The notes under the pieces were generated by a model. That model worked only from the letters and a program-made list of their open reading frames with translations, made no database searches and was not told the origin of the DNA. A DNA stretch of 61,353 nucleotides from Bdellovibrionota bacterium (GTDB lineage: Bacteria; Bdellovibrionota_C; UBA2361; OMIW01). Below are positions 1-14,783 of this stretch, piece after piece. The stretch lies in contig JBIJBT010000003.1 of the NCBI GenBank assembly GCA_044345055.1, positions 1 to 61,353 of the forward strand. The letters run 5' to 3'. Position numbers and translations under genes: made by a program. Each line of letters opens with the position of its first letter. The stretch's first letter is position 1.

Positions 1-515
1 TCTCGACACTGAACCCCTCGTACAAGAACCCTAGCAGGTTCAAGGTTTTTCCTATCCCGAACCGAAAGGCTTCGACCATCACAGTACGGGCCTAAACCAC
101 TAGTTGACTCTATCAAACAATCAATTGCGGGGAAATAGAGCCAACCCCCAACAACCTCACCTCTCCAACAACAGGCAAGCTGAACCGCAAAATCGGGGGT
201 GCCACTCAAAAATTCGCGCGTTCCATCAAGAGGATCAAGGATCCAGCTTCGCTCTGATTTTCCATCATTATTGAGAACACCCTCTTCTGATAGCACAGGC
301 TCCTCGGGAAATCTCGCCGACATCTCGCTAAAAAAGAGATCCTGAGCAGCGTGATCAGCGGCGGAGACAAGCGAGCCATCTATCTTCTGCGAAATTTCCA
401 AATCAATAGCGCCATCTCGATTCGGTCGCCATCTGAGAAGCTCAGCCCCCACCTTTCTAACAAGAGCACCAACGAACTGTGCATCTTCCGTCGACAATCT
501 CCCTGAATCCGTCAT
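1..515 (-). CDS. Inositol monophosphatase family / CysQ-like 3'(2'),5'-bisphosphate nucleotidase, runs off the left edge
   Basis: Not in the ORF track. Manual translation from ATG at 515 (GAGGAG RBS upstream) gives MTDSGRLSTEDAQ...DGSLVSAADHAAQ...VLSEEG...WILDPLDGTREF, containing the IMPase/CysQ motifs. Confidence 0.85.
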   Translation of the reverse strand, partial: MTDSGRLSTEDAQFVGALVRKVGAELLRWRPNRDGAIDLEISQKIDGSLVSAADHAAQDLFFSEMSARFPEEPVLSEEGVLNNDGKSERSWILDPLDGTREFLSGTPDFAVQLACCWRGEVVGGWLYFPAIDCLIESTSGLGPYCDGRSLSVRDRKNLEPARVLVRGVQCR

Positions 516-563: not shown

Positions 564-1376
564 TTAAACCAAATTGCTTTTGTGATCCTCACGCTCCAGC
601 AACCTAATCAATGCGTTCTTGATCAAACATTTTGTCTGAAAAAAAGAACTACCGGTTATTTCGTGTAATGAAATAAACCGCTCCTGCAAATTAAGAAATC
701 GTTCGGCGATACTTACTTGCGTGGCAGATTGTAGATCACCATCATCGTAGTCATCCTGGAGCTGAAACAACACCCCAAAGTCCCTGCCAATCCCCCTCAA
801 TAGTCCTCCAAGTAGCTCAAGATCTCCACTCCATGAAGTTCCCCCAAGCCGAAGAGCTGTCGCGAAAAGCGCACCTGTTTTTAATTCTGCAATTCTAGCC
901 GATTGCGTTGAATCTATTAACTCCTGATGCTGCCCTAAACATAGCTCTGAAAATGCCTCAGCGAGTGTAAAAATCGCGAGATTTGGCCTCGGAACATCAG
1001 CGATCAACTCAAAAGCCCACCCAATCAGCGCATCTCCCGCTAAAAGGGCCGACGCCTCACCAAAAGCAATATGGCAGCTCGGCATTCCACGTCGAACTGC
1101 ATCATTATCGAGGCAGGGCAGATCATCATGGATCAACGAGGAGATATGGATACATTCTAATGCAGCCGCTCCTGGTAGAACTTCTTTCACTTCTAACCCT
1201 AAATCCGTAGCAACAGCACAGGTAAGAAGAGGCCGAAGCCGTTTTCCGCCGGGAAAAAGAGCATATTCTATCATCGGGAACAGCGATAATCCGGCCCATC
1301 GGGCGATCATTCGCTCTTGTAAGAAACTATTGAAGCGACTTTTATTATCCGTGGAGATATTTTCTGCCTTACCCAT
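564..1376 (-). CDS. ispA: Polyprenyl diphosphate synthase (farnesyl/geranylgeranyl diphosphate synthase)
   Basis: GGKRLRP; first Asp-rich motif LIHDDLPCLDNDAVRRG; KTGALF; second motif FQLQDD. Confidence 0.9.
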   Translation of the reverse strand: MGKAENISTDNKSRFNSFLQERMIARWAGLSLFPMIEYALFPGGKRLRPLLTCAVATDLGLEVKEVLPGAAALECIHISSLIHDDLPCLDNDAVRRGMPSCHIAFGEASALLAGDALIGWAFELIADVPRPNLAIFTLAEAFSELCLGQHQELIDSTQSARIAELKTGALFATALRLGGTSWSGDLELLGGLLRGIGRDFGVLFQLQDDYDDGDLQSATQVSIAERFLNLQERFISLHEITGSSFFQTKCLIKNALIRLLEREDHKSNLV

Positions 1377-1423: not shown

Positions 1424-2767
1424 CTAAGTGCTTCCCACTTTCCAATAAGGCTTTTCAGGTAGAGCCAACGCCTTCCGAATAGAACCGATTAGATACATCG
1501 ATCCAAGCACAACGAGGGGGGGTGTCTGTGTTTTGTCCCCGATTGGCCCTTTCAATAACTGCTCAAAAAGTTCTTCTTCATCCCTTAATAGGTAAGAAGT
1601 TATTCCAAAACCCGAGAGATATTCAGATATCATCTCCGATGGAACCGCACTCTCCCCGGGTGGCGATAAGAGGTACCAGTGTCGGGTAATGGGGTAAAGA
1701 ATATCAATCATTGACCGCCAATCTTTTGTATTGAGTGACCCAAAGACGCAGTCTATTGATTGATTGAAGGTATTTTTTACGAAAGTTGCGACCTGTTTTA
1801 CTCCATCTGGGTTGTGCGCCGAGTCTAAAATCACAGTTCTTGTTTCAAAACACGATAACTGTTCAAGTCGAGCAGGCCAGGATACCTGAGAAAGTCCTTT
1901 TGCAGATAACATCGGATCAAGGCCCTCTACAATCGCTGCAACCAGGGCTAAAGCTGCATTATGGACCTGATGCGCTCCAGCTAATGGAGGTGAGAAGGGG
2001 TAAGTCTTATTATTAAAGTGTAGAGTATAGCTGCCATCTACCTCGTCATGCACCCAAAAGTCCCTGCCGAAGGCAATCACCGGAACTCCAGCAGCTTCTG
2101 CTTGCAATTCAATCACTAATCTAACACTTTCGAACACGGCTCCAACAACAACCGCTTTCATCGTTTTCTTTATGATCCCTGCTTTCTCTCTGGCTATTAA
2201 CTCGAGCTGGTTTCCGAGTAGCTCAGTATGGTCAAACGAGACCGAAGTTATAACCCCAACGGCCGGATTTGCGGCAATATTTGTTGTATCAAGCCGTCCT
2301 CCTACACCAACCTCCAGAACCCCATAATCGACCTCTTCCGATTGCCCCTCCAGAAGCGCGACAACTGTCATAGCCTCATGAAGACTGAGGACAACACCAA
2401 TTGACTCAGATGCAGCTTCAATTAGCCTCAGATGACGAGCCAAAATAGCATCCTCAATCGGAATACCATCAAGAATTACCCGCTCATTAACCCTGACGAG
2501 ATGAGGCGATATTGTTAGGACAACCTTTTTCTGATTAGCACCCAACATCGCCGCGATCGCGCAAGACACTGAGCCTTTTCCGTTTGTACCTGCTATGTGA
2601 AAAACAGGAAATGCCTCGTGCGGTCTCCCGATTAACCCCACTAGCCGACGTACCTTATCCAGCGAAAACTCTTTCGATCCGCGATTGCTGACAAATTTCT
2701 CGATGATATCAGCATCTTCGTGGATGTTACTCGCCGTCCCACCGTGGGACATACTCGGTTCTCTCAT
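1424..2767 (-). CDS. folC: Bifunctional folylpolyglutamate synthase/dihydrofolate synthase
   Basis: HIAGTNGKGS P-loop, SPHL..VNER, EVGVGGRLDTTN, DHTELLG...IAREKAGIIK, WPARLE, LDSAHNP, GSMYLIG. Exact start uncertain. Confidence 0.93.
   Translation of the reverse strand: MREPSMSHGGTASNIHEDADIIEKFVSNRGSKEFSLDKVRRLVGLIGRPHEAFPVFHIAGTNGKGSVSCAIAAMLGANQKKVVLTISPHLVRVNERVILDGIPIEDAILARHLRLIEAASESIGVVLSLHEAMTVVALLEGQSEEVDYGVLEVGVGGRLDTTNIAANPAVGVITSVSFDHTELLGNQLELIAREKAGIIKKTMKAVVVGAVFESVRLVIELQAEAAGVPVIAFGRDFWVHDEVDGSYTLHFNNKTYPFSPPLAGAHQVHNAALALVAAIVEGLDPMLSAKGLSQVSWPARLEQLSCFETRTVILDSAHNPDGVKQVATFVKNTFNQSIDCVFGSLNTKDWRSMIDILYPITRHWYLLSPPGESAVPSEMISEYLSGFGITSYLLRDEEELFEQLLKGPIGDKTQTPPLVVLGSMYLIGSIRKALALPEKPYWKVGST
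2735..2751. promoter_or_regulatory. parS-like palindrome, copy 1 (CGTCCCAC-C-GTGGGACA)
   Basis: Perfect 7-1-7 palindrome GTCCCAC-C-GTGGGAC. The identical 17-mer recurs at 2854-2870, next to parB. Confidence 0.7.
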
Positions 2768-2853
2768 AGTTTATCTCACAGCACGATACTTTTTTATTAC
2801 AACAATTAGACGGCTATCTTCAGAGCAACAACCTAGGTGAGGGAGGCTCTAAT

Positions 2854-2870
2854 CGTCCCACCGTGGGACA
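2854..2870. promoter_or_regulatory. parS-like palindrome, copy 2 (CGTCCCAC-C-GTGGGACA)
   Basis: Identical to 2735-2751 and about 20 bp downstream of the parB stop. Enclosed by an outer inverted repeat GAGGGAGG (2839-2846) / CCTCCCTC (2871-2878). Confidence 0.7.
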
Positions 2871-2889
2871 CCTCCCTCTGAAACAACAA

Positions 2890-3813
2890 TCAGCCCTCCG
2901 CTACTAGCTTACGAAAAATCTCCTGCAGATCGTCTTCCGAATAGAACTCGAGAACTAATCGTCCTCGGTTGCTATTCCTAGACTCTCGTTGCAGCCGAAC
3001 TCGAACCCCAACAGCCCTTTGAATTTCATCAGCGATCCGCTGATCCTCAGGATCCATCGGATCATCTTTTTCAGAATCAGTTCTCTCCTGTTGAGTTCGA
3101 ATCGTCCGCTGAGATCTTCCTTTTAAATGAGCCTCGATATCGCTTCGGGTAATTTCCTCAATTTCCCGCAGATACGTTGCACGGAGATCTTCATCATCGA
3201 TCTTTGCCAAAAGAAGGATCTTTGATTCAGATGCCCCACCTTGTAGTGCGACTATTAAATCAGGAGGAAGAAGCAACAATTCGAGACTTCGATGGACAAG
3301 GCTCTTGGAAACCCCCAACTTTTCAGCGATATCTCGAATCGATAATGAAAAAGAATCTCTCAACATGCCCATCGCCTGAGCCCGCTCCAGGGGCGACAAA
3401 TCCGCACGTTGAAGATTCTCTACCAACTGAATCGCTAAGGTCTTCTCCTTATCTCCTTCAAGGCTCCGGTCGATTATTGCCGGAACAGAGGCCAAACCAG
3501 CCTGTGTCGCGGCTCGCAACCGCCTCTCACCCGCTACAACAAGAAAGCGGCCTACTATCTTACTCGGGCGGACCAATAGCGGACTCAGCACTCCATATCG
3601 ACTAATCGATTGGGTTAACTCATCTAATTGATCCTCATCAAAGACACTTCTGGGCTGATTCGGATCGGGATCGATGAAGTTTATTGGAATCTCTCGAAAG
3701 GGACCCACCGAAATAGATGGTGGTTGAGGTGCATCCGTCTGCTCATTTCGCTCTCGCAGTGCCGGACCACTCAAAAGAGGGTTATTTGCCAGAATTAACT
3801 TACGCTTACTCAT
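2890..3813 (-). CDS. parB: ParB/Spo0J family partition protein
   Basis: PDPNQPR box I, AGERRLRA CTP-binding box II, LVENLQRADL, HTH (LSIRDIAEKLGVSKSLVHRSL), C-terminal GRLVLEFYSEDDL dimerisation domain. Overlaps the parA stop. Confidence 0.95.
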   Translation of the reverse strand: MSKRKLILANNPLLSGPALRERNEQTDAPQPPSISVGPFREIPINFIDPDPNQPRSVFDEDQLDELTQSISRYGVLSPLLVRPSKIVGRFLVVAGERRLRAATQAGLASVPAIIDRSLEGDKEKTLAIQLVENLQRADLSPLERAQAMGMLRDSFSLSIRDIAEKLGVSKSLVHRSLELLLLPPDLIVALQGGASESKILLLAKIDDEDLRATYLREIEEITRSDIEAHLKGRSQRTIRTQQERTDSEKDDPMDPEDQRIADEIQRAVGVRVRLQRESRNSNRGRLVLEFYSEDDLQEIFRKLVAEG

Positions 3814-4600
3814 TCATCACCTCCGCTGCTAATGATTGATAATCCTCTGCTCCCGAGGATTTTTCAGCATATTCGAAGATTGTCTTACCCTGAGCGGGAG
3901 CTTCTGCTAGAGCAACATTCGTTCGAATGACTGTCTTGAAGACAAGATCCCCGAAATAGGAGTGAATAGTCTCTGCAACAGCCCGAGCTAAACGCCTCCT
4001 TGAGTCGTGTAAGCAGATAAGAACTCCTCCAACAACTAGCTCAGGATTGTAGATCGCCCTTACCTGATCGATCGTATCGAGGAGCTGACGCACTCCATGA
4101 AGAGCCAAATACTCGCTCTGAACTGGCACTATAACTTTCTGAACCGCTGCCAGAGCATTAAGCGACAAAAGCCCCAATGCAGGAGGACAGTCGACCACGA
4201 TGACGTCATATTCATCGGAAACCTTCGAGAGTGCCCTCTTAAGAAGCAATTCTCGACCGACAACCCCTCCTAACTCGAGATCCGCCGCACTCAAAAGAAG
4301 ACTTGAAGGTATAACATCAAGATTTTGCGAACGCTTTAACGCAACTTCTCCTACCGTCTTCGATCCTTTAAGGACATCGTAGCTTGTAAATGCCGGAATC
4401 AATCGATCTTCCGAGCTCTCGACCGTCTCCTCTTCATCTCCTGTAGCGATACCAAGATGCGTCGAGGCATTTGCCTGTGCATCAATATCAATTAGCAATA
4501 CTCGCTTACCCCGTACCGCGAGAGCTGCTCCTAAATTAACGCTTGTCGTCGTTTTACCGACGCCCCCCTTTTGATTTACCACTCCGAGTACTAATGCCAT
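3806..4600 (-). CDS. parA: ParA/Soj family ATPase
   Basis: NQKGGVGKTTT deviant Walker A, LLIDIDAQANAS, IVVDCPPALG, PVQSEYLALHG, IRTNVALAEAP. Confidence 0.95.
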   Translation of the reverse strand: MALVLGVVNQKGGVGKTTTSVNLGAALAVRGKRVLLIDIDAQANASTHLGIATGDEEETVESSEDRLIPAFTSYDVLKGSKTVGEVALKRSQNLDVIPSSLLLSAADLELGGVVGRELLLKRALSKVSDEYDVIVVDCPPALGLLSLNALAAVQKVIVPVQSEYLALHGVRQLLDTIDQVRAIYNPELVVGGVLICLHDSRRRLARAVAETIHSYFGDLVFKTVIRTNVALAEAPAQGKTIFEYAEKSSGAEDYQSLAAEVMNE

Positions 4601-4815
4601 ACCAGTTACCGTGCTTTGAAATAATAGAAAGTCGACAGATTAATGGAGAAGGGGAGCGTAGCTGTTTGAGGTCCGTAGCAATAACCTTTCAGAAATCAAT
4701 AAAAGCTCCAGAACTACAACCAGCTATTTCCCACTAATTCCCCACATCATGTCTGCATAATGCGACGCTCTTTATACGACTTTTCGTCGAAGCACGATAC
4801 CCTTATCGCCGCTTG

Positions 4816-4909
4816 TTATTTCAATTCCCGTCATCCACCGTGAAACGATATAAATTAAGCTGAAGATTAAACGGAGAGCAGAAATTAATTTGATTATTTC
4901 AATACCCGT
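4816..4909 (-). repeat. Two inverted iteron-like copies (TTATTTCAATWCCCGT at 4816-4831 and 4894-4909)
   Basis: The two 16-mers differ at one base. 4819-4830 is the exact reverse complement of CGGGAATTGAAA at 5015-5026. Confidence 0.65.
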
Positions 4910-4923
4910 GCAGTTGAAAATAG

Positions 4924-5047
4924 TTCGTGATTTGAACGTAATTTCTTTCGTGACCTGAATTAATTAACATCGGGCAACGAAAAAAATACGCCCGTGAACT
5001 CTCATAAATACTATCGGGAATTGAAAGATTTTTTATCGTGATCTTAG
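4924..5047 (+). repeat. Phased array of six degenerate iteron-like motifs (consensus about YCGKGAnnYGAA) with AT-rich spacers; putative replication origin
   Basis: CG(T/G)G cores start at 4926, 4949, 4971, 4993, 5015 and 5037 (spacings 23, 22, 22, 22, 22), directly upstream of the Rep gene. Confidence 0.75.
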
Positions 5048-5179
5048 ATAAAAATATCCTTCTAACATATTGGTTTCATTAGCTTTATTGCTCGCTCACA
5101 ACATAAATAAGTGAATAAAAATCTAATTGTTTAACTTACTAAAAGTCAGTACTCTCACCACATCACCGCCTCTCTTCAT

Positions 5180-6472
5180 GTGAGCACCATGAGCGAAATT
5201 CCCAGAAAAATAATCTCCCGCGACGAAATGAATTTGGCAGAGTTTCCTCTGACGGTTCTCTCTACCCGCGCGAATCCTAATTTAAAAACTCTTGAATTCA
5301 GCGATTCAATCAGAACAAAAAATGGCGATCTCGTTGAGCGAAAATGGCTCATAACGGGAGCGGATAAATTCGGTCTTCCTACATCATCGGACGACGAGGT
5401 ACTGCTCGGGCTCTTGAAACTTACAGTTGACGATGGCATCACAAGAAGAAAAGTTCATTTCACACGGTATGAACTTCTTAGAACTCTACGCTGGAGTACC
5501 GAGGGACGGAGCTACACCCGACTACAAAAAGCTCTGGATAGGCTTGCAGGTCTCAGAATCAAAGCAACAAATGCATTTTTTGATAACGATGCAAAAAGTC
5601 ACAGCACGAAGGTATTTGGATTAATCGATGCTTACGAAATAAACACATCCCGAGATACGGATCTGAAATCGAGCTATTTCACCTGGAGCGAAACCATTTT
5701 TAAATCCTTTCAGGTAGGCTTTATAAAAAAGCTTGATCTCGATTTTTACCTCTCCCTGAACTCGGCAGTATCAAAGCGACTATACAGATTCCTCGATAAG
5801 CATTTCTGGTATCGGTCCTGCGTTGATATAAACCTTTTCACCCTCTCTCATGAAAAACTAGGAATTTCTCGAAACTATAAATTCGCAAGCTCACTCCGAC
5901 AGCAGTTGGATCCAGCACTCAAGGAACTTTGCGAACATGGCTTTTTAGAAACATTTTCATTCTCAGGAAAAGGCTCAGAAACGCGATTAAGCATGATCGC
6001 AAAGCGTGGAGTACGATCAGTTGCAAAACAGGACGAGAAGCTCCCGAAACCCGCCTCAATCCCAGGAAGTACTTCGCTAGTGCAAGAGATAATGGGACAA
6101 CTTGTCACACGGGGCATTAAAGAGCGTCAAGTAATAAAGCTCCTTGCGGGACAAACTGAGGATTCGCTCCGGCATATTCAGAGAATCATCGCTTATTTCG
6201 ACGCTCTCGTTGAAACAGGTAGCCACCTCGTCAATAAAAGTCCTGTTGGATTTCTCTACCGCGCGATCGAAAATCACAAAACATTTACCGTGCCAAAACG
6301 AATTCCTCAAGCAGCCCGAGCGGTAAACGTCTCTCGTAGGACTCGACTTGATATTGAGAAAGAGATCGAAGCATCCCTTTCAAAGATTCGCCCCCATCTT
6401 TCGGCGAACAATTATCAAAAAGTTCTCGACCACGCAGTGAATGAGAGAATGCAAAAAGAGGGAATTGTTTAA
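5180..6472 (+). CDS. repA: Plasmid-type replication initiator protein A (RepA/RPA-like)
   Basis: N-terminal RDEMNLAEFPL..LS motif; GLPT..D.EVLLGLL, FTRYELLR.L.W...GRSY.RL..AL.RL, LD..FY.SL.S..SKRLYRFLDKHF resemble replication initiator A proteins as I recall the family. Divergent from parAB. Start GTG 5180 or ATG 5189. Confidence 0.8.
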   Translation: MSTMSEIPRKIISRDEMNLAEFPLTVLSTRANPNLKTLEFSDSIRTKNGDLVERKWLITGADKFGLPTSSDDEVLLGLLKLTVDDGITRRKVHFTRYELLRTLRWSTEGRSYTRLQKALDRLAGLRIKATNAFFDNDAKSHSTKVFGLIDAYEINTSRDTDLKSSYFTWSETIFKSFQVGFIKKLDLDFYLSLNSAVSKRLYRFLDKHFWYRSCVDINLFTLSHEKLGISRNYKFASSLRQQLDPALKELCEHGFLETFSFSGKGSETRLSMIAKRGVRSVAKQDEKLPKPASIPGSTSLVQEIMGQLVTRGIKERQVIKLLAGQTEDSLRHIQRIIAYFDALVETGSHLVNKSPVGFLYRAIENHKTFTVPKRIPQAARAVNVSRRTRLDIEKEIEASLSKIRPHLSANNYQKVLDHAVNERMQKEGIV

Positions 6473-6486
6473 AGCAACTCAATTAT

Positions 6487-6501
6487 TGGCGCGCTGCTTG
6501 C
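6487..6501 (+). promoter_or_regulatory. Sigma54 (-24/-12) promoter for the lytic transglycosylase gene
   Basis: TGGCGCGCTGCTTGC(T): GG-N10-GC with TTGC, intergenic, about 105 nt before the ATG. Confidence 0.65.
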
Positions 6502-6607
6502 TTCCATTGAGACTCCGCAGTGCCCAATTAGAAATAGACGTAAAAATAGAACATCGATTCATGGGCTCTGTGGTTTCCAACCAGCTACCTTTGGTACTCG
6601 GAGGCCC

Positions 6608-7561
6608 ATGAAGATAGACTTCCTTGGCAGCTTTAAAACAATTCAGCGAAGCTTGCACCAGGAATCCTCGAACGAAAAAGTTGCTGTAAGCAATGGGAAG
6701 ACCCCCTTTGCTAGGCTAATCGACGAGCAAATTAAACCGAAACAGATCGATCAGAAACCAAAACTAACGGTTAAAACTCGACCTAAAACAGTCCCATCCT
6801 TACCTACGGAAGCTGAAATTTCGGATGTAATGGCGCAAATATCCTCAAGACTCATAACCCCAAAGTTGAACCCTCCTCAACTATCCAATAGCCGTTTAGA
6901 GCCGGTAAATCCAGAGGATGTCAATAAACCATTACCAGCTCTTACTCCACCAACGATAGTGTCAATAAAACGTCATGACTCTGCGGATGTATTTGATCGA
7001 TTACCCCGAGATGAGCGGGTTGCCGCAGTCAGTAACCTAATCGGTCGCGCGAATGAGCTTCATGGAACCGATCTTCCTGTTCCGCTCGGATTGGCAGTTG
7101 TATCAACTGAATCTTCATTTCGTGCCAAAAGTATCAGTCGTGATGGACATGCAACCAAGGGACTTTTCCAATTTCTAGATTCCACGGGGAGGGAAATTCT
7201 TTCCCGCTCTGATTCATCTTCTGATTATAGCCCTCTTAATCCTGAGCAGAATGTGAGTCTCGGTGTTCGGTATCTGACGCACCTTCAGGATATTTTTTCC
7301 CGTCCGACAAAGCTTGCTAATGGCGTTGAAACAATACCTGCAACAACGACCCTTTCGAATAAAAAAATAGCACTTGCTGCATTTAATGCAGGCGAGGGAA
7401 GACTTGCATCGGCGCAGGCGCGAGCTCTTCGAGAGCAGCTAAATCCAGGCGATTACGACGACGTAAAATTATTTATACCTGCAAGCACGAGAAGATACGT
7501 TGAAAGTGTTCTCAAACAAGAGCAGGAATTTCAGCTTGCAACCAGTAGTAGAGAAGAGTAA
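6608..7561 (+). CDS. Lytic transglycosylase (SLT domain) with a long Pro/Lys-rich N-terminal region
   Basis: AVVSTESSF (catalytic Glu), KGLFQF, NPEQNVSLGVRYL, ALAAFNAGEG, TRRYVESV. Confidence 0.85.
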   Translation: MKIDFLGSFKTIQRSLHQESSNEKVAVSNGKTPFARLIDEQIKPKQIDQKPKLTVKTRPKTVPSLPTEAEISDVMAQISSRLITPKLNPPQLSNSRLEPVNPEDVNKPLPALTPPTIVSIKRHDSADVFDRLPRDERVAAVSNLIGRANELHGTDLPVPLGLAVVSTESSFRAKSISRDGHATKGLFQFLDSTGREILSRSDSSSDYSPLNPEQNVSLGVRYLTHLQDIFSRPTKLANGVETIPATTTLSNKKIALAAFNAGEGRLASAQARALREQLNPGDYDDVKLFIPASTRRYVESVLKQEQEFQLATSSREE

Positions 7562-7594
7562 CGACCACTGCTGTCTGTTCACTAATTCTACAGA

Positions 7595-7609
7595 TGGCAA
7601 CGTTCTTGC
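7595..7609 (+). promoter_or_regulatory. Sigma54 (-24/-12) promoter for flagellin
   Basis: TGGCAACGTTCTTGC(T) with correct GG-N10-GC spacing, about 125 nt before the flagellin ATG. Confidence 0.7.
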
Positions 7610-7625
7610 TTATCTCTTAACAGCC

Positions 7626-7639
7626 GGCAAAGGATTGCC
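7626..7639 (+). promoter_or_regulatory. CsrA/RsmA-type GGA hairpin in the flagellin leader
   Basis: GGCAA-AGGA-TTGCC perfect 5-bp stem with GGA in the loop. A further ACGGA (7722-7726) sits next to the AGGAG RBS. Confidence 0.55.
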
Positions 7640-7735
7640 ACTTAGCCCAGCACGAATGCTTTGGTATTAAAATGCACCCATTTGATCGGTGACCTTGTGA
7701 AACGCGACAGCGCCGTCTTACACGGATAGGAGACC

Positions 7736-8602
7736 ATGTCCATAAATATAGCGACCAACGTTTCGTCCATTCGCGCTCAAAGAAATCTTACATCGGTTTC
7801 TGAGCGTCTTGGTAAATCTTATGAAAGACTCTCATCTGGGTTTCGCATCAACGGCGCAGCTGATGATGCTGCTGGGTTATCGATAGCGGAAACTCTTAAA
7901 GCAGATGCTCGCGTAGCTGTCGTCGGTATACGAAATGCCAGCGACGGAATATCGCTCGTAACCATCGCCGATCAAACTATAAATGAGATTACGAACGTGC
8001 TTGGGCGATTAGCTGAATTGGCTCAGCAGTCGGCGAACGGAATCTACAGCAATGAGCAACGCTCCGCTCTCTCGGGTGAATTTGTCGCTCTATCAAGCGA
8101 AATTGAGCGTATCGCCCTTACGACTGAATATAATGGTCAGCGATTACTTAGTGGGTCGGAGGCGATTACTTTTCAGGTAGGTTTTGATGGAAGTTCTCTC
8201 TCGACCGTAACATACTCGGGTGTCGCTGCTACGTTACAGGCTTTAGGACTTGCACAGGCAGGATCCTCAATACAGACGTATTCGATTATCGATGGTTTGG
8301 GATCTGCGGCTTCAGCATCAGCTTCTCGGTTGGCCCTCGATGCTGTAAACAATGCGATCGGCTCTCTTTCGCGGAATAGAGCCACCTTGGGTGTTGCCGA
8401 ATCTCGATTAACCGCAACGATTAATAACCTAAGAGCCGCTCGGGAAAACTTCCTCGCAACAGAGAGCCGAATCCGAGATGTCGATGTTGCTTCAGAAGCA
8501 GCAGAGCTATCCCGCGTAAGCATTCTCCAGCAGGCCGGCACTGCAATGCTAGCTCAGGCGAACCAGCAGCCACAGCTTGCCCTTCAGCTCCTACAGGGAT
8601 AA
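7736..8602 (+). CDS. fliC: Flagellin
   Basis: INIATNVSS...ERLSSGFRINGAADDAAGL N-terminus; ENFLATESRIRDVDVA...ILQQAGTAMLAQANQQPQLALQLL C-terminus. Confidence 0.96.
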   Translation: MSINIATNVSSIRAQRNLTSVSERLGKSYERLSSGFRINGAADDAAGLSIAETLKADARVAVVGIRNASDGISLVTIADQTINEITNVLGRLAELAQQSANGIYSNEQRSALSGEFVALSSEIERIALTTEYNGQRLLSGSEAITFQVGFDGSSLSTVTYSGVAATLQALGLAQAGSSIQTYSIIDGLGSAASASASRLALDAVNNAIGSLSRNRATLGVAESRLTATINNLRAARENFLATESRIRDVDVASEAAELSRVSILQQAGTAMLAQANQQPQLALQLLQG

Positions 8603-8653
8603 TTTAGAGTGAATGATACCCTTGGGCTATTTACTCTCGGTGACGGGTAAGTT

Positions 8654-9817
8654 TTAGAAGAGACTAATCTGATTTGACAACCTAACAAACATCTCCTCAA
8701 CGAGCTGAATTCGATTGAAAAGACTTGGGATCGACATCCATTCACGCTCTGAGTGATCGTCACCTCCGATAGGACCAAGACCATCGATCACCGTGGCCCC
8801 CGCGTCGGCCCAAAGATTAGCATTTGAGCTACCGCCGCGAGTTTGGAAACCAACGGTAAAACCTAACTCTTCGCCAACGCGTTGACACAGCTGAGCAAGA
8901 GATAATGATTTTTCAGTCACTGGCATCGCAGGTGACGCGGATTCTTGCCAGGTCAACTTTGTCGTGGTTCCCGGAATGTGAGGATTTTCTGCTATATCCG
9001 AGAACAACTTGGCAAGTCTTCCGAACAAAGGGGCGGATGTAAATCGAATGTTGATGAGACATGATGCGGCATCAGCAATTACATTATGGGCAATGCCTCC
9101 TTTGACCAGACCAACTGAGAAAAGGATTCCCTCCTCTTGCATCTCGTAAGCAGCCTCCCGCAACGCGCATACTTTGTATGCAAGCTCCTCAATTGCGTTA
9201 CGACGAATTCCTTTGACGTTACCCGCGTGTCCTGCGACACCAAAAACTCTGAGGTCGGCAACCTGAATACCGGACCGACCTATAACCACTTCTCCCTCTT
9301 GTCCCGCCTCCTCAAAGACGAGCACAACGTCTGATTGTGGCGCGAGCTCTCGGATAAGGCTTCGCGATGATGGGCTTCCTACCTCCTCATCTGCTACCAG
9401 CAATACCCGAACACTGAGTTGGTCGAGCATTCCGGAGCGGTATAATCGGCGCAGAGCACCGATCATGCATACATTACCCCCCTTCATATCGATGACTCCT
9501 TGACCAAGACAACGATCACCATCGATTCGAAAAGAGGGCTCTGAATCTGGCGGGAATACGGTATCCATGTGGCCGTCAAGCGTCACTGAGGGACGATTAC
9601 TCCGCAGTCTTTCTGCAACTAGATGAGGACCAAAACCCTCCGCTTCAATGAGCCGAGTCGTAAAACCCATTGCCTCAAGCTCACGAGAAGCGATGGACTG
9701 AACCTTGCGGATACCTTCAGGGTTCGAGGTACCACTTTGAATGGATACAATCTCTCCCAGAAGTTCAAGAAGTGAAAGGTCTGGGGAATAAGGGGAGGGT
9801 AGCGAAGTAGAGTCCAT
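8654..9817 (-). CDS. M20/M25/M40 family metallopeptidase (carboxypeptidase G2-like)
   Basis: GHMDTVFP, GQGVIDMKGG, DEEVGS, VFEEA, GVAGHAG, DGLGPIGGDDHSERE. Confidence 0.88.
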   Translation of the reverse strand: MDSTSLPSPYSPDLSLLELLGEIVSIQSGTSNPEGIRKVQSIASRELEAMGFTTRLIEAEGFGPHLVAERLRSNRPSVTLDGHMDTVFPPDSEPSFRIDGDRCLGQGVIDMKGGNVCMIGALRRLYRSGMLDQLSVRVLLVADEEVGSPSSRSLIRELAPQSDVVLVFEEAGQEGEVVIGRSGIQVADLRVFGVAGHAGNVKGIRRNAIEELAYKVCALREAAYEMQEEGILFSVGLVKGGIAHNVIADAASCLINIRFTSAPLFGRLAKLFSDIAENPHIPGTTTKLTWQESASPAMPVTEKSLSLAQLCQRVGEELGFTVGFQTRGGSSNANLWADAGATVIDGLGPIGGDDHSEREWMSIPSLFNRIQLVEEMFVRLSNQISLF

Positions 9818-9898
9818 AATGAGATTGATTCAGAGTGTTCTAACCTCTCACGGCTGAGTATTTTCACCGCCCTGCTGATGTATTCAGTTTGAGACGTT

Positions 9899-10123
9899 TC
9901 AATTTTTTGCATCGCTCTCATCCTCTTGGCTTTGCGGCGATTGCCATAGGCTGAAGAGAGTGCCGCACGCAACCAAAACGGTATGAAATACCGATATGAT
10001 ACATCCCCAATAATTTGAAAATTCAACGGCAGCTGCCACAAGACGAAGGACAATGATTGCCACAACTAAGGTGGTGATAAAGAGGAGGCGGCGGTTAGCA
10101 GGTAGGGACAGCGATTGAAGCAC
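9899..10123 (-). CDS. Small hypothetical membrane protein with two hydrophobic segments
   Basis: GTG start preceded by GGGAG; two TM-like stretches; acidic tail. Confidence 0.45.
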   Translation of the reverse strand: MLQSLSLPANRRLLFITTLVVAIIVLRLVAAAVEFSNYWGCIISVFHTVLVACGTLFSLWQSPQSQEDESDAKN

Positions 10124-10461
10124 AAGGGCTCCCGTAGAAGTAATTTTTTGTACCTAACGATATATCTCGGATGGTGTAAAAATGCAGTATAGGTACCGCC
10201 GTACAATCTTGGCGAAAAACCACTTCAAAGTAAACCTCAACCCTCTTGGTCGTTAAAGAGCGCTTATAAATACCTCATGGCGGCTCCACTCTAAATCGCT
10301 CTCTCATACCTTTTTTGCTGTGAGGGGAAGCTGTAGAAACTTTTCTCAGCTTGACGGTTTTTCCCTCACAGCATTAGGCGATCCAGATTGTTGGCGCGGA
10401 GTGCCATCGAATCTTTTGTCAAGCTTAGGATATTAAATCCCGCTTTATTACCTGCACACAA

Positions 10462-10788
10462 TCAGCGAAGAAGTGCCAATCTATCCTGTAGACCGTTGGG
10501 GTCTCCCTCGTAGTTTCGAAGAAAATCTTGAAGCGCGAGAGGATCAAGATCTAGATGAGTGGCGACCCAAGAGAAGCTGAAAGGTTGCTTGGGCATCAAC
10601 TTGCCGAATAACCACTGACGCGCGCTGCGAATTATATGTCGCTCACAGTGAGCGGTTCCGAAAGCGTCACAAATTGCCCGAGAGAGTACGGCTGCAAGCA
10701 GATTTCTCTCTGATTTAACGGGGCAATGAGATTCGTAATCGTCATCTCGCTCTGAGGTGAACTTTCCTACGGCTGGTGAATTGCTCAT
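10462..10788 (-). CDS. Conserved-looking hypothetical protein
   Basis: ERNLLAAVL.RAI.D...AR.W.F......FSF.WV...L.LDP..L pattern resembles a small uncharacterised family I recall from deltaproteobacteria-like genomes. Purine-rich RBS. Confidence 0.7.
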   Translation of the reverse strand: MSNSPAVGKFTSERDDDYESHCPVKSERNLLAAVLSRAICDAFGTAHCERHIIRSARQWLFGKLMPKQPFSFSWVATHLDLDPLALQDFLRNYEGDPNGLQDRLALLR

Positions 10789-11660
10789 ATGCTGCTTCCC
10801 TGTTCTAATTTATCCCACACTCGTGTTTACCTGCAGATGCAGGATAAACCCCTCTGTGGGCGGGTTTGGGCTGAAAACAACATCCAATGACATCCAGTGA
10901 AACTTGCGAACAACACTTAGCGCACTGCGCTGTTGTAAACCAGAAATCAGAATGTCAACGACGATTACAAGAGAATAGGTTCTAACTGTTCGTTCCTTAC
11001 CTATTCTTGCATTCTTCGTTTTTACCGCGTGAAGAAGTACCTATAAACCGAATTGTCATAACCAACCTGAAAAACCAACCAGGCAATGACTACAGACTTA
11101 CTTTTAGTTATTTAAAGTAAAGTAGTCAAGCAGCGTAAGAGGTCAAAAGTAACTGAAATATGTAATTTTTTTGTACCAGAAAATTTTCTGAATACTCATC
11201 CATCGTTACTGCATCAACCCCAGCTGATAGCCGCACCATAGCATAAGATGAGTGTCAAGCAATAAAGTTTCGCTGTCTTTTCGGCAATTTCAGAAGATTT
11301 TCGATTCTATGTGTTCTGGCTTTTCAAAAACTGTTCTAGTTGCATTTCGGAGAATCCAGATCGCTATTTCAAGAAAGGTTTTTGAGGCTGCGAAATAAGG
11401 CGACTACAGATGCAAAGAGGCGGCTCATCCAAATTCGACTCGGTACTACTTTCAATCAATAGAGGGAAGAATTGATCATTACCTAGATCGAGGAATTTCT
11501 CTCGTTCATTTATTGGTCGTCCGATGATCGATTTCACTTTTCTAATCAGTTGGCCCTCTAAATGACGCATGGTATCGTCGTTTCTAAATCGCTTCTTTTC
11601 GAGAACTTTGGATCTACGCATTGATCTGTTTATTTTAAATTTCTAACAAAGGATTTCGAT

Positions 11661-12665
11661 ATGTTTCAGGCCTACGCTGCGACTGATCCAATGGGACGTC
11701 TTGTTCCTTTTTCGTACGATCCCGGTCCTCTGAAAGATGATGAAGTGCAGATTCGGATCGAGTTCTGCGGCATTTGTCACAGTGATCTGAGTATGCTCAA
11801 CAACGACTGGGGCTCGACCTCATATCCATTTGTTCCCGGTCACGAAGTGGTGGGTATTATCGAAGATAAAGGTCCACTTGTTCCGGACCTTGCTCTCGGT
11901 CAGCGAGTCGGAGTTGGATGGTTTTCGCGATCATGCCTTACCTGTGAATCATGCCTTGGCGGGCATCAAAATCTCTGCGCTCGCTCTGAAGGAATAATCG
12001 TTGGCCGCCATGGAGGATTCGCCGATCGAGTCCGTTGTCACTTCAGTTGGGCGACACCTGTACCCGATTCAATACCACCTGAAACGGTAGGTCCCCTTTT
12101 TTGCGGAGGTCTGACCGTTTTCGGACCAATTCTCGATAATGTTAGGCCGGTGGATAGAGTTGGTGTTATTGGAATTGGAGGACTCGGTCACCTCGCCGTT
12201 AAATTTCTTCGAGCATGGGGTTGCGAGGTGACCGCATTCTCGTCGAGCACTGACAAAACGGCAGAGGCTATGGCGATGGGAGCTCATCGAGTAGTCGGAT
12301 CTTTCGATGCTAAAAAGCTCACCGAACTGAAGGGATACTTTAACTTCATCATATCAACGGTGAACGTACCACTTGATTGGACTGCCTACATCAACGCTCT
12401 TGGACCTAACGGGAAACTTCATTTTGTCGGAGCAGTCCTAGAACCGTTGTCATTCGGTGTTTTCTCGCTGCTTGGCGCGAATAAGTCGATAAGCGCAAGC
12501 CCGCTTGGCTCAATTCGACAAATGCGCTATCTCCTTGAGTTTGTTGCTCGCCACGAACTCTTCCCGACTGTGGAGGTCCACAAGCTTCAGGACGTCAACG
12601 TAGCTCTAAATGAGCTTAAAGAGGGGAAGGTTCGGTATCGGAAGGTGCTCGATTGTCGGGAATAG
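11661..12665 (+). CDS. NAD(P)-dependent zinc alcohol dehydrogenase / aldehyde reductase (Ahr/YjgB-like)
   Basis: CGICHSD, GHEVVG, structural Zn CxxCxxC...C, PLFCGGLTVF, GIGGLGHLA. Confidence 0.92.
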   Translation: MFQAYAATDPMGRLVPFSYDPGPLKDDEVQIRIEFCGICHSDLSMLNNDWGSTSYPFVPGHEVVGIIEDKGPLVPDLALGQRVGVGWFSRSCLTCESCLGGHQNLCARSEGIIVGRHGGFADRVRCHFSWATPVPDSIPPETVGPLFCGGLTVFGPILDNVRPVDRVGVIGIGGLGHLAVKFLRAWGCEVTAFSSSTDKTAEAMAMGAHRVVGSFDAKKLTELKGYFNFIISTVNVPLDWTAYINALGPNGKLHFVGAVLEPLSFGVFSLLGANKSISASPLGSIRQMRYLLEFVARHELFPTVEVHKLQDVNVALNELKEGKVRYRKVLDCRE

Positions 12666-12732
12666 GGCGAAGGTTTATCGCTGTGTGCACTGGGGCGAGA
12701 AGGGGCGCAGAGAATTCTTTACGCCGTAACAA

Positions 12733-12753
12733 AAAAACTAGTAGTTTTTGACA
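12733..12753 (+). promoter_or_regulatory. Palindrome AAAAACTA-G-TAGTTTTT overlapping a TTGACA -35 box upstream of the transposase
   Basis: 8-1-8 palindrome at 12733-12749; TTGACA at 12748-12753. Confidence 0.4.
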
Positions 12754-12819
12754 ACATTTTCTCCTTCGTGTCGATCACAGAGAGAAACTTTTTTTTTTCT
12801 CTCTTGGAGGACGACACCA

Positions 12820-13746
12820 ATGGGCTGCCACCCGCGTATAGAAACAAACGAACACTCAGACTTTATCACCAGTCGAACCAGAGATTCTCGCCTCTGGTTC
12901 GTCAACAACGAATCGCTCGAGCACCGGATTCTTGGACTAACCGCAAAATACGCCACTCGTCGCATGATTACCCTCTACGGCTTTGCGATCGAGGGGAATC
13001 ATCTGCATATCGTTGCGCACAACAATAAGAAAAATCGAGCTCACTTTTTGCGGGACCTGAAATCAACAATAGCCCGAGCCGTTCCTCAACACACACCCTC
13101 ATATTCGGGCGGTGGAGTCTGGGGAAGGAGATACTCAAACGAGTTTCTTGGCGATCACTCCGATATCGAAAACTACTTCTTTTACACCGTCCTTCAGCCA
13201 GTAAAAGATGGTCTTGTTGAAAAAATATCCGACTACCCGGGCTACAACTGCTTCCACGACGCAGTGTGGGGAATAAAGCGAAAATTTAAGGTAATGAACT
13301 GGACCGCCTACTACAAAGCTACTCGGTGGGGTCAAAAGGTAAACAAGAAAGACTTCCTCGAGGAGTTCACCCTCGAATACGCAAGACTCCCCGGCTATGA
13401 ACATCTCTCCCAAAGAGAGTACGCCCTATTGATGACTCGTCGCCTAGAAGAGCGTCGTCAAGAGATTCTCAAAGCCAGAGACGCTGAAGGAAAGAAATTT
13501 CTCGGCCCAACCGCTCTCAAACGAGTTGAGCCGGGCTCGCTCCCAAAATCCACAAAAACCTCAACCCTAACCACCCATCGCCCCCGCGTCCTATCGAAGT
13601 GCGACGTTCGTCGCGCTGAAATGAATGATTGGTATTACGATATCTACTTCCGCTTCAAAGTCGCCTCTGAGGAATATCGAAGTGGCAATCTCTCTGTCGA
13701 GTTCCCCGAGGGCACTTATCGTCCCTACGTCGGACCAGTGACCTGA
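12820..13746 (+). mobile_element. HUH (Y1) transposase, REP-associated tyrosine transposase (RAYT)/IS200-like
   Basis: FITSRT, FAIEGNHLHIV (HUH), VWGRRY, YTVLQPVKDGLV (catalytic Tyr region), C-terminal VEFPEGTY. ATG 12820 follows GGAGG (the ORF track starts at 12748). Confidence 0.82.
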
Positions 13747-13961
13747 GGCGCCTTTTCGGTAATCGGTTTCCTTAAAATCCCCCCCCACCCGCGACTTTCA
13801 GCCGCATTCGCAGAGCTACGACTAAAAAGCAATTTTCGCGAGAAAAAAGAGGGAGAAATCAGTATTCCCACCCCGAGAATGCACCGTTTCCACCCCGATC
13901 TCCGACCATTTTTAGCTAAAAACTCCCGAAACCCACCCCCAGCAGCTGTGCTTGTTTGGTG

Positions 13962-14783
13962 GAACCTCTATAAGTCTGAGAAAAGGAGGCTCTTCGGTCC
14001 GCTGAATAGTTACAGTTCCTGTTATAAGCAGCTGCCTTGAAGCTCCTCTGTAATTCAAAACAGCGTAAAAAATCTTAACAGAAAACCATCCTTCGTTCGA
14101 AAAAAAACTAGCATATCACTTAGTCGGGTGGGTGATATGGTTAGGCTGAGAGACTGCAGAGGAATCTGTCCGTTATTGCTGGTGTATTGCACTTTTTGGA
14201 GGATAGTATGAAACCATATCCATCAGAATTCTCCACCCGTTTTCACTCACGAGATGAGCTTGACGTCGCTATTGCTCATCTACAAGCGGCTGGTTTTCCA
14301 CCAGAAGCTCTTCATCAATCGATCCTTGAGCATACTGCCGATAGTTTGCCATTCTCCGGAGCAGGTCTCACGCACGGAGCAGTACTTGGTTGCCTTATTG
14401 GGATGATACTCGGCTGGGTGAGTTGCTCATCGATCATCGGCATGAAACTACTTGAATCAGGCTCCGGAGAGGTTCACAGCTCTGCTGTGCTCCCGACGAT
14501 TGAATGCATCACCATCGGAGGTATGGAGGGAATGATAGTCGGGTTGTTAATCTCGGCCGCCTTAGGAACGGGACCAGATCACCGGAAACCTGGTGAACGT
14601 AACGCAGTTATCTACCGTTTGCTCATAAAGTGCAGAGATAAGAAAGATAAGGCTCGTGCCAAAGCAATTATTATTGCTAATTGCCATCGAAAGAACATGC
14701 AGCAGCATACGCCGACACATACGGTAAGCGACGCTACTTAAATGATGGGAGGCATGCCGTGAACCTCCATAAGTCTGAGAAAA
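13962..14783 (+). repeat. 23-bp direct repeat pair GAACCTCYATAAGTCTGAGAAAA at 13962-13984 and 14761-14783
   Basis: One mismatch in 23 nt. Both copies are intergenic and bracket the 14208-14741 gene. Confidence 0.8.
14208..14741 (+). CDS. Hypothetical membrane protein with Gly-zipper-like hydrophobic segments (general-stress-protein-like)
   Basis: F.SR.E...AI..L..AGF N-terminus; GAVLGCLIG and GGMEGMIVGLL segments; ATG 14208 follows GGAGGA. Confidence 0.6.
   Translation: MKPYPSEFSTRFHSRDELDVAIAHLQAAGFPPEALHQSILEHTADSLPFSGAGLTHGAVLGCLIGMILGWVSCSSIIGMKLLESGSGEVHSSAVLPTIECITIGGMEGMIVGLLISAALGTGPDHRKPGERNAVIYRLLIKCRDKKDKARAKAIIIANCHRKNMQQHTPTHTVSDAT

Follow-up and report, generated by a model that had tools for sequence, protein, structure and literature searches.

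The window analysed here, a stretch of 61,353 nucleotides from a Bdellovibrionota bacterium, carries between positions 2736 and 6472 a plasmid-type replication initiator gene, rep, and a divergently transcribed pair of partition genes, parA2 and parB2, accompanied by an array of direct repeats (iterons) and by two copies of a short palindrome. It is the entire contig C35 of its source genome (G000), a 2.82-Mb draft in 162 contigs that is 96% complete, and from the single spacer that parts rep from parA2 the genes diverge in both directions across 1-8.6 kb of the window. We consider it likely that this segment provides both the origin and the partition system of a further essential replicon, namely a chromid or second chromosome, which would exist alongside, and presumably physically separate from, a chromosome replicated from a DnaA-dependent origin (oriC). 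The elements of the module are the following:

2736-2750, no strand: first copy of the candidate centromere parS2, a 15-bp palindrome (GTCCCACCGTGGGAC) within the first codons of folC
2855-2869, no strand: second copy of the candidate centromere parS2, identical in sequence (GTCCCACCGTGGGAC), in the gap from the parB stop to the folC start
2890-3813, minus strand: parB2, partition protein of the Rep replicon (Pfam ParB_N, E 6.3e-26; HTH_ParB, E 1.8e-9)
3806-4600, minus strand: parA2, Walker-type partition ATPase, divergent from rep (Pfam AAA_31, E 2.7e-55, and CbiA)
4601-5188, no strand: putative origin region (ori2), the 588-bp parA-rep spacer with all iterons and the AT-rich tract
4607-4626 (plus), 4780-4799 (minus), 4814-4833 (minus) and 4836-4855 (plus): outlying iterons found with a weight matrix, reported at 13.5, 16.6, 12.4 and 15.0 bits, respectively
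4923-5053, plus strand: six direct iterons in helical phase, pointing to rep
5021-5140, no strand: AT-rich tract, on its composition a likely DNA-unwinding element
about 5127-5150, no strand: conserved single-copy element just upstream of rep, ATTGTTTAACTTACTAAAAGT in the window
5189-6472, plus strand: rep, an RPA-family replication initiator of 427 amino acids (Pfam RPA, PF10134), with a GTG at 5180 as an alternative start

Rep is encoded by a single-copy gene in the source genome and belongs to Pfam family RPA (PF10134), which it matches with 73.5 bits (E 2.4e-20, cut-off 27) over residues 14-241, aligned to positions 1-216 of the 228-position model, a result that was reproduced in the whole-genome scan. 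A weaker similarity to the Pfam family TrfA, at 21.7 bits, lies slightly under the cut-off of 22. The nearest plasmid genes are annotated as 'replication initiator protein A' and come from plasmids of Isosphaeraceae and other Planctomycetes, at 32-36% identity, followed by megaplasmid proteins of Deinococcus and Thermus at 22-25%; among the plasmids of PLSDB, none carries a Rep more than 37% identical. An AlphaFold model based on an alignment of 11 sequences (mean predicted local distance difference test, pLDDT, 72.6; predicted template-modelling score, pTM, 0.43) predicts that Rep has a tandem winged-helix initiator fold, and the top fold match of this model in the PDB is Vibrio RctB domains 2-3 (5ubf_A; E 2.6e-7, target template-modelling score 0.57). 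The matches ranked fourth and fifth are co-crystal scaffolds that we take to be built on RepE54. Beyond a variable linker, Rep has a second conserved region (residues ~296-427) with an invariant stretch around SPVGFLYRA(V/I)E (residues ~351-361), for which neither a Pfam match nor a recognised counterpart was found; the C-terminal tail is ~70-100 residues shorter in the genus of the window than in other families.

The spacer between parA2 and rep has the anatomy of an iteron origin. Its six direct iterons start at 4923, 4946, 4968, 4990, 5012 and 5034, that is, with spacings of 23, 22, 22, 22 and 22 bp, and share a unit of approximately YCGKGA-N7/8-TAAAT, and the AT-rich tract, with 70-82% A+T in most 40-bp windows and 65% in one, is placed between the last iteron and rep. 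The inverted pair was also picked up as exact 12-nt inverted repeats, with arms at 4819-4830 and 5015-5026. The weight matrix used to locate these sites was built solely from the parA-rep spacers of 68 loci in other genera, out of a set of 70 related loci obtained by scanning one genome per species, and its application to the window yielded, in 61 kb, 68 hits scoring 8 bits or more, 10 of them inside the 588-bp spacer. Clusters of at least four hits per 300 bp are confined, in the whole 2.82 Mb of the source genome, to this spacer; in a near-complete relative from a different family (G015, five contigs, 2.64 Mb, all analysed) they are likewise confined to its own parA-rep spacer. Across the 70 orthologous spacers, the core TCGTGA occurs 6.23 times per kb vs 0.69 in the flanks, a 9-fold enrichment. 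The iteron has the family consensus tATCGTGAATTGAnaTAAAa, and neighbouring iterons are most often 22 bp apart (53 spacings), then 44-45 bp (27) and 60 bp (18).

The conserved element just upstream of rep is represented in 42 of the 70 spacers by TTGTTTAAC, and 35-43 of 71 spacers contain its 9-mers, a single time per locus; it may be the promoter or operator of rep, or else part of the unwinding element. A scan of the spacer for promoters and terminators returned one promoter-like site vs 1.8 expected, that is, no signal. Outside the origin, the sole three-hit iteron-like cluster of the source genome is located within folC (window 1598-1838), and a strong single iteron-like site is found at 2769 on the minus strand, beside the palindromes. 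In G015, the sole such cluster outside the origin lies on the contig that carries dnaA (C2:914,688-914,888), ~300 kb from oriC. All of these are possible sites of Rep control or timing.

The partition genes form a system distinct from the one that accompanies dnaA. In all 70 loci with sufficient upstream DNA, parA is divergent from rep and adjoins it, and ParA2 is 68.7% identical to its G015 orthologue vs ~40% to the canonical ParA1. ParB2 shares 30% identity with ParB1, the other ParB of the source genome, which is encoded on contig C15. The dimerisation domain of ParB2 (ParB_C) was detected at 21.6 bits, under the cut-off of 23.8 bits (E 1.5e-4). With regard to the palindrome, five matches with up to three mismatches were found vs 0.89 expected, and none of 100 shuffles reached five; at no more than one mismatch, the whole source genome contains just the two copies listed above, with one further copy on contig C161 at two mismatches. 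In G015, again, only two copies exist at up to one mismatch, both beside parB2. In 50 of 70 loci, the exact 15-mer is found immediately beyond parB, and four of the 20 loci lacking it have too little upstream DNA to be judged. In the genomes G010, G041, G044 and G055, three of which belong to other orders of the class, the palindrome is found solely beside parB2 and Rep, with no hits for the reversed control. The canonical parS, on the other hand, is unlike this palindrome, and G015 has five copies of it, located where the skew of the dnaA contig is lowest. In the window the canonical site is absent, with one hit at three mismatches vs 0.17 expected, and no copy with up to two mismatches was found in the whole source genome, where the region may be unassembled or the site variant. 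Judging from this distribution, the 15-bp palindrome is probably a private centromere specific to ParB2.

Much of this architecture had been anticipated. The initial annotation of the window, made from the nucleotides and their open reading frames, described a Rep-family initiator, a 22-bp-phased repeat array, AT-rich tracts, parAB and two identical parS-like palindromes, all of which lie where it had placed them, to within a few bases: the first of these is borne out by the RPA profile match and the RctB-like winged-helix model, the second by the six weight-matrix sites with their 23/22/22/22/22-bp spacing, and the palindromes by the copies at 2736-2750 and 2855-2869. It had also read parAB as leading co-directionally into folC, ispA and cysQ, and these are indeed five genes on the minus strand.

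The anatomy of the locus, taken together with the biology of iteron replicons, is the basis on which we infer binding, firing and copy-number control. Monomers of the RPA-family Rep would bind the six in-phase 22-bp iterons at 4923-5053, and the bending of the bound DNA would open the adjoining AT-rich tract at 5021-5140, where the helicase and replisome of the host could be loaded to begin bidirectional theta replication. The outlying and inverted iterons at 4607-4855 may serve in autorepression, in handcuffing or in both, and in this manner control the copy number. Finally, ParB2 would bind the two 15-bp palindromes beyond its own gene and, together with ParA2, segregate the Rep replicon, a process expected to be independent of the ParAB1/canonical-parS system on the DnaA replicon.

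The module is widely conserved. Orthologues of Rep, at 56-80% identity, are present in 30 of 31 sampled relatives, and within the phylum-level group (one class, 36 families) Rep was found in 117 of 124 genomes, including all 73 with a completeness of at least 90%. Between the source genome and G015, Rep is 51.6% identical, ParA2 68.7% and ParB2 54.0%, and on the DnaA side the corresponding values are 55.8% for DnaA, 59.7% for ParA1 and 48.3% for ParB1. Rep is as conserved as DnaA, and the conservation of the module is near-universal and vertical-looking. Almost all of this diversity is uncultured: 77 of the 80 listed loci come from records labelled as metagenome-assembled genomes or as 'uncultured', and no cultured strain is named among those listed.

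Rep coexists with a conventional DnaA system. The initial annotation had proposed that the Rep replicon may be a chromid or even the main chromosome of this lineage, and had raised the location of dnaA as a question to be followed up. In the source genome, dnaA and dnaN are found together on a separate contig, C128, and a canonical parA-parB pair (ParAB1) on C15. The idea that Rep replaces DnaA on the main chromosome was thus rejected, since dnaA-dnaN and parAB1 are present in the same genome, and this half of the proposal falls; the chromid half is supported by the plasmid-family Rep with its iterons and ParABS, the base composition, the core genes, the conservation and the GC skew of G015. 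In line with it, the protein is of a Rep family, the module is present in relatives, and the skew minimum of the Rep contig of G015 coincides with Rep rather than with a DnaA-box origin.

The GC (guanine-plus-cytosine) skew of G015 bears on where replication would begin. Along its 709-kb contig C3, cumulative skew reaches a peak at ~40 kb and from there declines steadily until the 690-692 kb bin, its minimum, after which it climbs; the parA-rep spacer, at 691.5-692.2 kb, coincides with that minimum; from the spacer, the trend is monotonic for at least 650 kb. Contig C1 (544 kb), which is placed after C3 by synteny with the window, has positive skew throughout. The dnaA contig, C2 (1.25 Mb), has a V of its own with a minimum at ~600-620 kb (lowest bin 620 kb), close to dnaA (599 kb) and parS1 (620 kb), although its skew is flat and noisy at ~570-625 kb and turns again ~10-20 kb from the left end. 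The dnaA genes of relatives, too, are located at a skew minimum of their own on another large contig. Because of these patterns on C3, C1 and C2, the genome of G015 appears to be divided into two regions of ~1.25-1.4 Mb each, which would be replicated from dnaA and from Rep, respectively.

Core genes are found on the Rep side. The contigs of G015 other than the dnaA contig encode 21 of its 46 tRNAs, including all those for Glu, Gln, Phe, His and Leu, and one of its two 16S genes is on C1; their GC content (40.0-40.1% for C1, C3 and C5, 41.5% for C4) is close to the 40.7% of C2. These data bear on the proposal that the Rep replicon is a separate, dispensable megaplasmid or a mis-binned plasmid contig of another organism. 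That Rep belongs to a plasmid family, that the genomes are metagenome bins and that some of them are without Rep would all agree with such an origin. Nevertheless, Rep occurs in every one of the 73 high-quality genomes, from 36 families, and has diverged in step with DnaA; the GC content of contig C35 equals the genome mean (49.4% vs a per-contig mean of 49.5%, standard deviation 1.7); tRNA species found only there, a 16S operon and genes for biosynthesis and translation are located on the Rep-side contigs; and the replichore measures at least 650 kb, with no PLSDB Rep above 37% identity. We therefore regard a dispensable or foreign plasmid as very unlikely. The Rep replicon combines plasmid-type replication and partition with a chromosome-like base composition and core genes, traits that are reportedly among those defining chromids (Harrison et al., 2010), and is best read as an ancient, plasmid-derived replicon that carries about half of the genes.

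Whether the two halves are two molecules is a matter of assembly structure as much as of sequence. Rep and dnaA are on separate contigs in all six genomes examined in this respect (G001, G008, G010, G015, G020 and G041). Support for two molecules comes from G041, from another order, which consists of three contigs: one of 3,256,849 bp with dnaA and ParB1, one of 1,866,914 bp with Rep, ParB2 and parS2, and one of 21,428 bp. A search for end overlaps in its contig C2 returned a self-match only, uninformative on circularity.

A number of observations, nevertheless, weigh against a second replicon of this kind. None of the examined assemblies is shown to be closed. In G015, the right ends of C1, C2 and C4 and the left end of C3 all stop in copies of one repetitive gene, and even though all pairs of contig ends were joined in silico and checked for spanning open reading frames, no join could be trusted, because four ends lie in that same gene. 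The skew of G015 would also fit one circular molecule bearing two origins and two termini, and no dif-like site was found at either of its skew maxima, either with an Escherichia coli-type consensus or, as a convincing shared 28-mer, with blastn-short between the two regions. In addition, 15 of the 26 contigs of the source genome with at least five orthologue-like hits are mixed between the G015 replicons and 11 are pure, a degree of mixing that exceeds what is usual for well-separated chromosomes. Closer to the module itself, the formal skew minimum of the window is at 13-14 kb, ~8 kb to the right of the iterons, and the skew is negative up to ~7 kb, flat between 7 and 13 kb, and positive past 14 kb. 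No DnaA box (9-mer consensus, up to one mismatch) was found at 3500-7000, with three in the entire window; such a box is present in many iteron plasmids, though not universally. The structure model of Rep is of no more than moderate confidence, as its pTM indicates, and the Rep profile gave zero matches among PDB sequences. Finally, Rep is absent from G074, a single contig of 2.28 Mb, and from six other genomes, 77-87% complete.

Several of these points would be accommodated by one circular chromosome with two active, unrelated origins, a DnaA-oriC and a Rep/iteron origin, each of which replicates about half of it and is provided with its own ParABS. Such a circle would account for the two minima and two maxima of the G015 skew, for the lack of a dif site at either terminus and for the ready movement of genes between the halves across families; a join of C2-right to C3-left is as possible as one of C1-right to C3-left, all ends being in one repeated gene, and G074 demonstrates that one-molecule genomes exist in the group. 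It would require, however, that the assembly of G041 had been broken exactly twice, to leave one dnaA contig of 3.26 Mb, one Rep contig of 1.87 Mb and 21 kb besides. A dedicated divergent ParAB with a private centromere is, moreover, the hallmark of a separately segregated replicon, and in G074, where a single molecule is seen, Rep, ParB2 and parS2 are missing, so that the second origin is gone. No natural bacterial chromosome is known to have two heterologous active origins, and in fused Vibrio chromosomes one origin is silenced. We consider the two-origin circle, a single chromosome fired from both unrelated origins at once, each with its own ParABS and terminus, unlikely. If true, it would be a natural bacterial counterpart of the multi-origin chromosomes of archaea.

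The repeated gene at the G015 contig ends is large and internally repetitive, resembles the source-genome contig C112 and has copies near both skew maxima. It probably caused the assembly breaks and may also allow the two halves to recombine. Of the orthologue-like hits from the source genome to G015, 185 fall on the dnaA contig and 183 on the remaining contigs, which, with the mixed contigs, suggests that genes have moved frequently between the halves since the families diverged, or that paralogues confuse the assignment; the best hits were too mixed for an estimate of replicon size in the source genome.

In two reduced genomes, the module has decayed or disappeared. In G008 (1.9 Mb, 29% GC locally), the module is pseudogenised, with nine in-frame stops in rep, 13 stops in parB and two frameshifts in parA, and folC is gone, whereas the neighbouring genes are intact; the locus is C17:343,001-357,000, with the decaying module at ~4.7-8.6 kb of it. 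The GC skew there still flips at the dead rep. G074, a single contig of 2,283,970 bp that is 82% complete, retains dnaA and ParB1, and neither Rep, ParB2 nor the 15-bp palindrome was found in it. In this genome, 705 kb separate the two former flanks of the origin: folC is found at 679 kb and the orthologous flagellins, three in tandem, at 1,385-1,389 kb. Between them are ParB1 (701 kb) and dnaA (865 kb). Both genomes look like cases of replicon fusion followed by loss of the second origin, reminiscent of the natural loss of origin function reportedly seen in Vibrio strains with fused chromosomes.

G008 is also relevant to the last of the explanations to be weighed, namely, that the module is the remnant of an integrated plasmid that no longer fires, with its genes kept for other reasons and the skew a product of gene orientation only. 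Genes do diverge both ways from the spacer, which alone would give some skew, and in G008 the local skew flips although rep is dead. Against this, selection across the phylum has acted jointly on Rep, on the iteron sequence and its 22-bp phasing, and on ParAB with its palindrome; the skew is monotonic for 650 kb from the spacer; and where the module decays, as in G008, all three genes are hit together. A silent remnant is accordingly, in our estimation, hardly credible, and we retain the reading of a second essential replicon with an active origin.

Among known systems, the closest counterpart is chromosome 2 of Vibrio cholerae, with its initiator RctB, the iterons of ori2 and its ParAB2/parS2 system. 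Both have a plasmid-derived initiator with iterons adjoining its gene, a ParAB of their own with a private centromere, core genes and taxon-wide conservation, and the predicted fold of Rep best matches RctB domains 2-3. Contrary to RctB, however, Rep belongs to Pfam RPA, a different sequence family with no PDB sequence match; its iterons measure 22 bp and contain the core YCGTGA, and no DnaA box was found; sites of the 39-mer or crtS type are not shown here, the three-hit clusters being all that was seen; the conservation is at the level of phylum or class rather than family; and the replicons of G015 are nearly equal, at 1.25 Mb vs up to 1.39 Mb.

The family of the initiator, in turn, links the module to chromosome II and the megaplasmids of Deinococcus-Thermus and to plasmids of Planctomycetes, with which it shares Pfam RPA and the annotation 'replication initiator protein A'. 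In Deinococcus, this family also serves large secondary replicons. Those replicons range from ~25 kb to ~580 kb among the listed hits, whereas the replichore alone reaches at least 650 kb here. The resemblance to classical iteron plasmids, such as RK2 (TrfA), F (RepE), R6K (pi) and pPS10 (RepA), consists of in-phase direct repeats beside an AT-rich tract and rep, inverted partial repeats nearby, the winged-helix fold of Rep (predicted here) and the weak TrfA match at 21.7 bits. The module departs from them in serving a chromosome-sized replicon with core genes, in the sub-cut-off TrfA score, in the lack of a detected DnaA box and in the conserved C-terminal extension of Rep (residues ~296-427). 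Finally, it resembles the chromids of other bacteria (chromosomes 2 and 3 of Burkholderia, repABC replicons, Pseudoalteromonas and Leptospira) in plasmid-type replication and partition, chromosome-like composition and core genes, and differs from them in the family of the initiator and in occurring in a Bdellovibrionota-like lineage with no cultured member among the 80 listed loci.

Secondary chromosomes of plasmid origin are conserved mostly at genus-to-family depth and are almost all from cultured Pseudomonadota. Plasmid-derived second chromosomes as such are already known, and what is unusual here is the depth of conservation, the near-equal halves and the initiator family. A full-text search of the literature found no bipartite genome or Rep origin described for this lineage, although supplementary files might list such replicons. 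Metagenome bins were left out of a survey from 2026 that covered 43,074 complete RefSeq genomes and that makes no mention of Bdellovibrio or Oligoflexia (PMC13342612).

Roughly half of a genome of small size (2-5 Mb) seems to be under the control of the Rep module, and this half includes a rRNA operon and tRNA species found nowhere else in it. Should this be confirmed, few known bipartite genomes would be as deeply rooted or as evenly split, and the RPA-family initiator would join RctB and RepC on the short list of domesticated chromosome initiators. G074 and G008 would represent natural experiments on fusion and origin loss. In practice, bins of this group that retain just 'the circular contig' will be systematically incomplete.

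The module is embedded in flanks that are themselves partly conserved:

3-515, minus strand: inositol-monophosphatase-family gene (cysQ/suhB-like; Pfam Inositol_P, E 1.9e-26), truncated by the contig end, the terminal gene of the leftward co-directional block
564-1376, minus strand: polyprenyl synthetase gene (ispA-like; Pfam polyprenyl_synt, E 1.3e-35), conserved left flank of the origin block
1424-2767, minus strand: folC-like Mur-ligase-family gene (Pfam Mur_ligase_M and Mur_ligase_C), immediately downstream of parB
6608-8602, plus strand: conserved right flank (Pfam), with an SLT-domain lytic transglycosylase at 6608-7561 and a flagellin at 7736-8602

The source genome shares its gene order from ispA to the flagellin with G015, where the ispA-like orthologue adjoins folC-parB (C3:687,652-688,077) and the right flank has the same order (C3:693,982-695,874). 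The ispA-like gene is also retained in G008, and in G013 flagellins adjoin Rep. The order folC-parB-parA/rep, which the initial annotation had singled out for comparison across related genomes, holds in G015 and G013, where the position of folC is syntenic, and does not extend to G041 and G044, in which folC is away from Rep. The remainder of the window contains the housekeeping genes prfC, lysA, ilvD and gcvP and three tRNAs, as that annotation had listed. Integrase, conjugation and phage genes, which it had reported as lacking, were not the object of a systematic search, and a transposase-like open reading frame turned up below the cut-off of its family.

This open reading frame, at 12748-13746, resembles a REP-associated tyrosine transposase (55 bits, family cut-off 80). 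Together with minus-strand genes at 8654-9817 and 10462-10788, it is located within the part of the window where the skew is flat (7000-14000), and the orthologue of 10462-10788 is found across the origin in G015, at 668 kb of C3. Because of these minus-strand genes, the transposase-like frame and the cross-origin orthologue, a local rearrangement beside the origin is suggested at 7-14 kb of the window. Farther along, positions 42969-44891 encode a 640-aa protein that matches, well under the family cut-offs, the N-terminal membrane half (~310 residues) of export-gate proteins of the SctV/FlhA type, and its orthologue in G015 is on C1, near the start of the contig.

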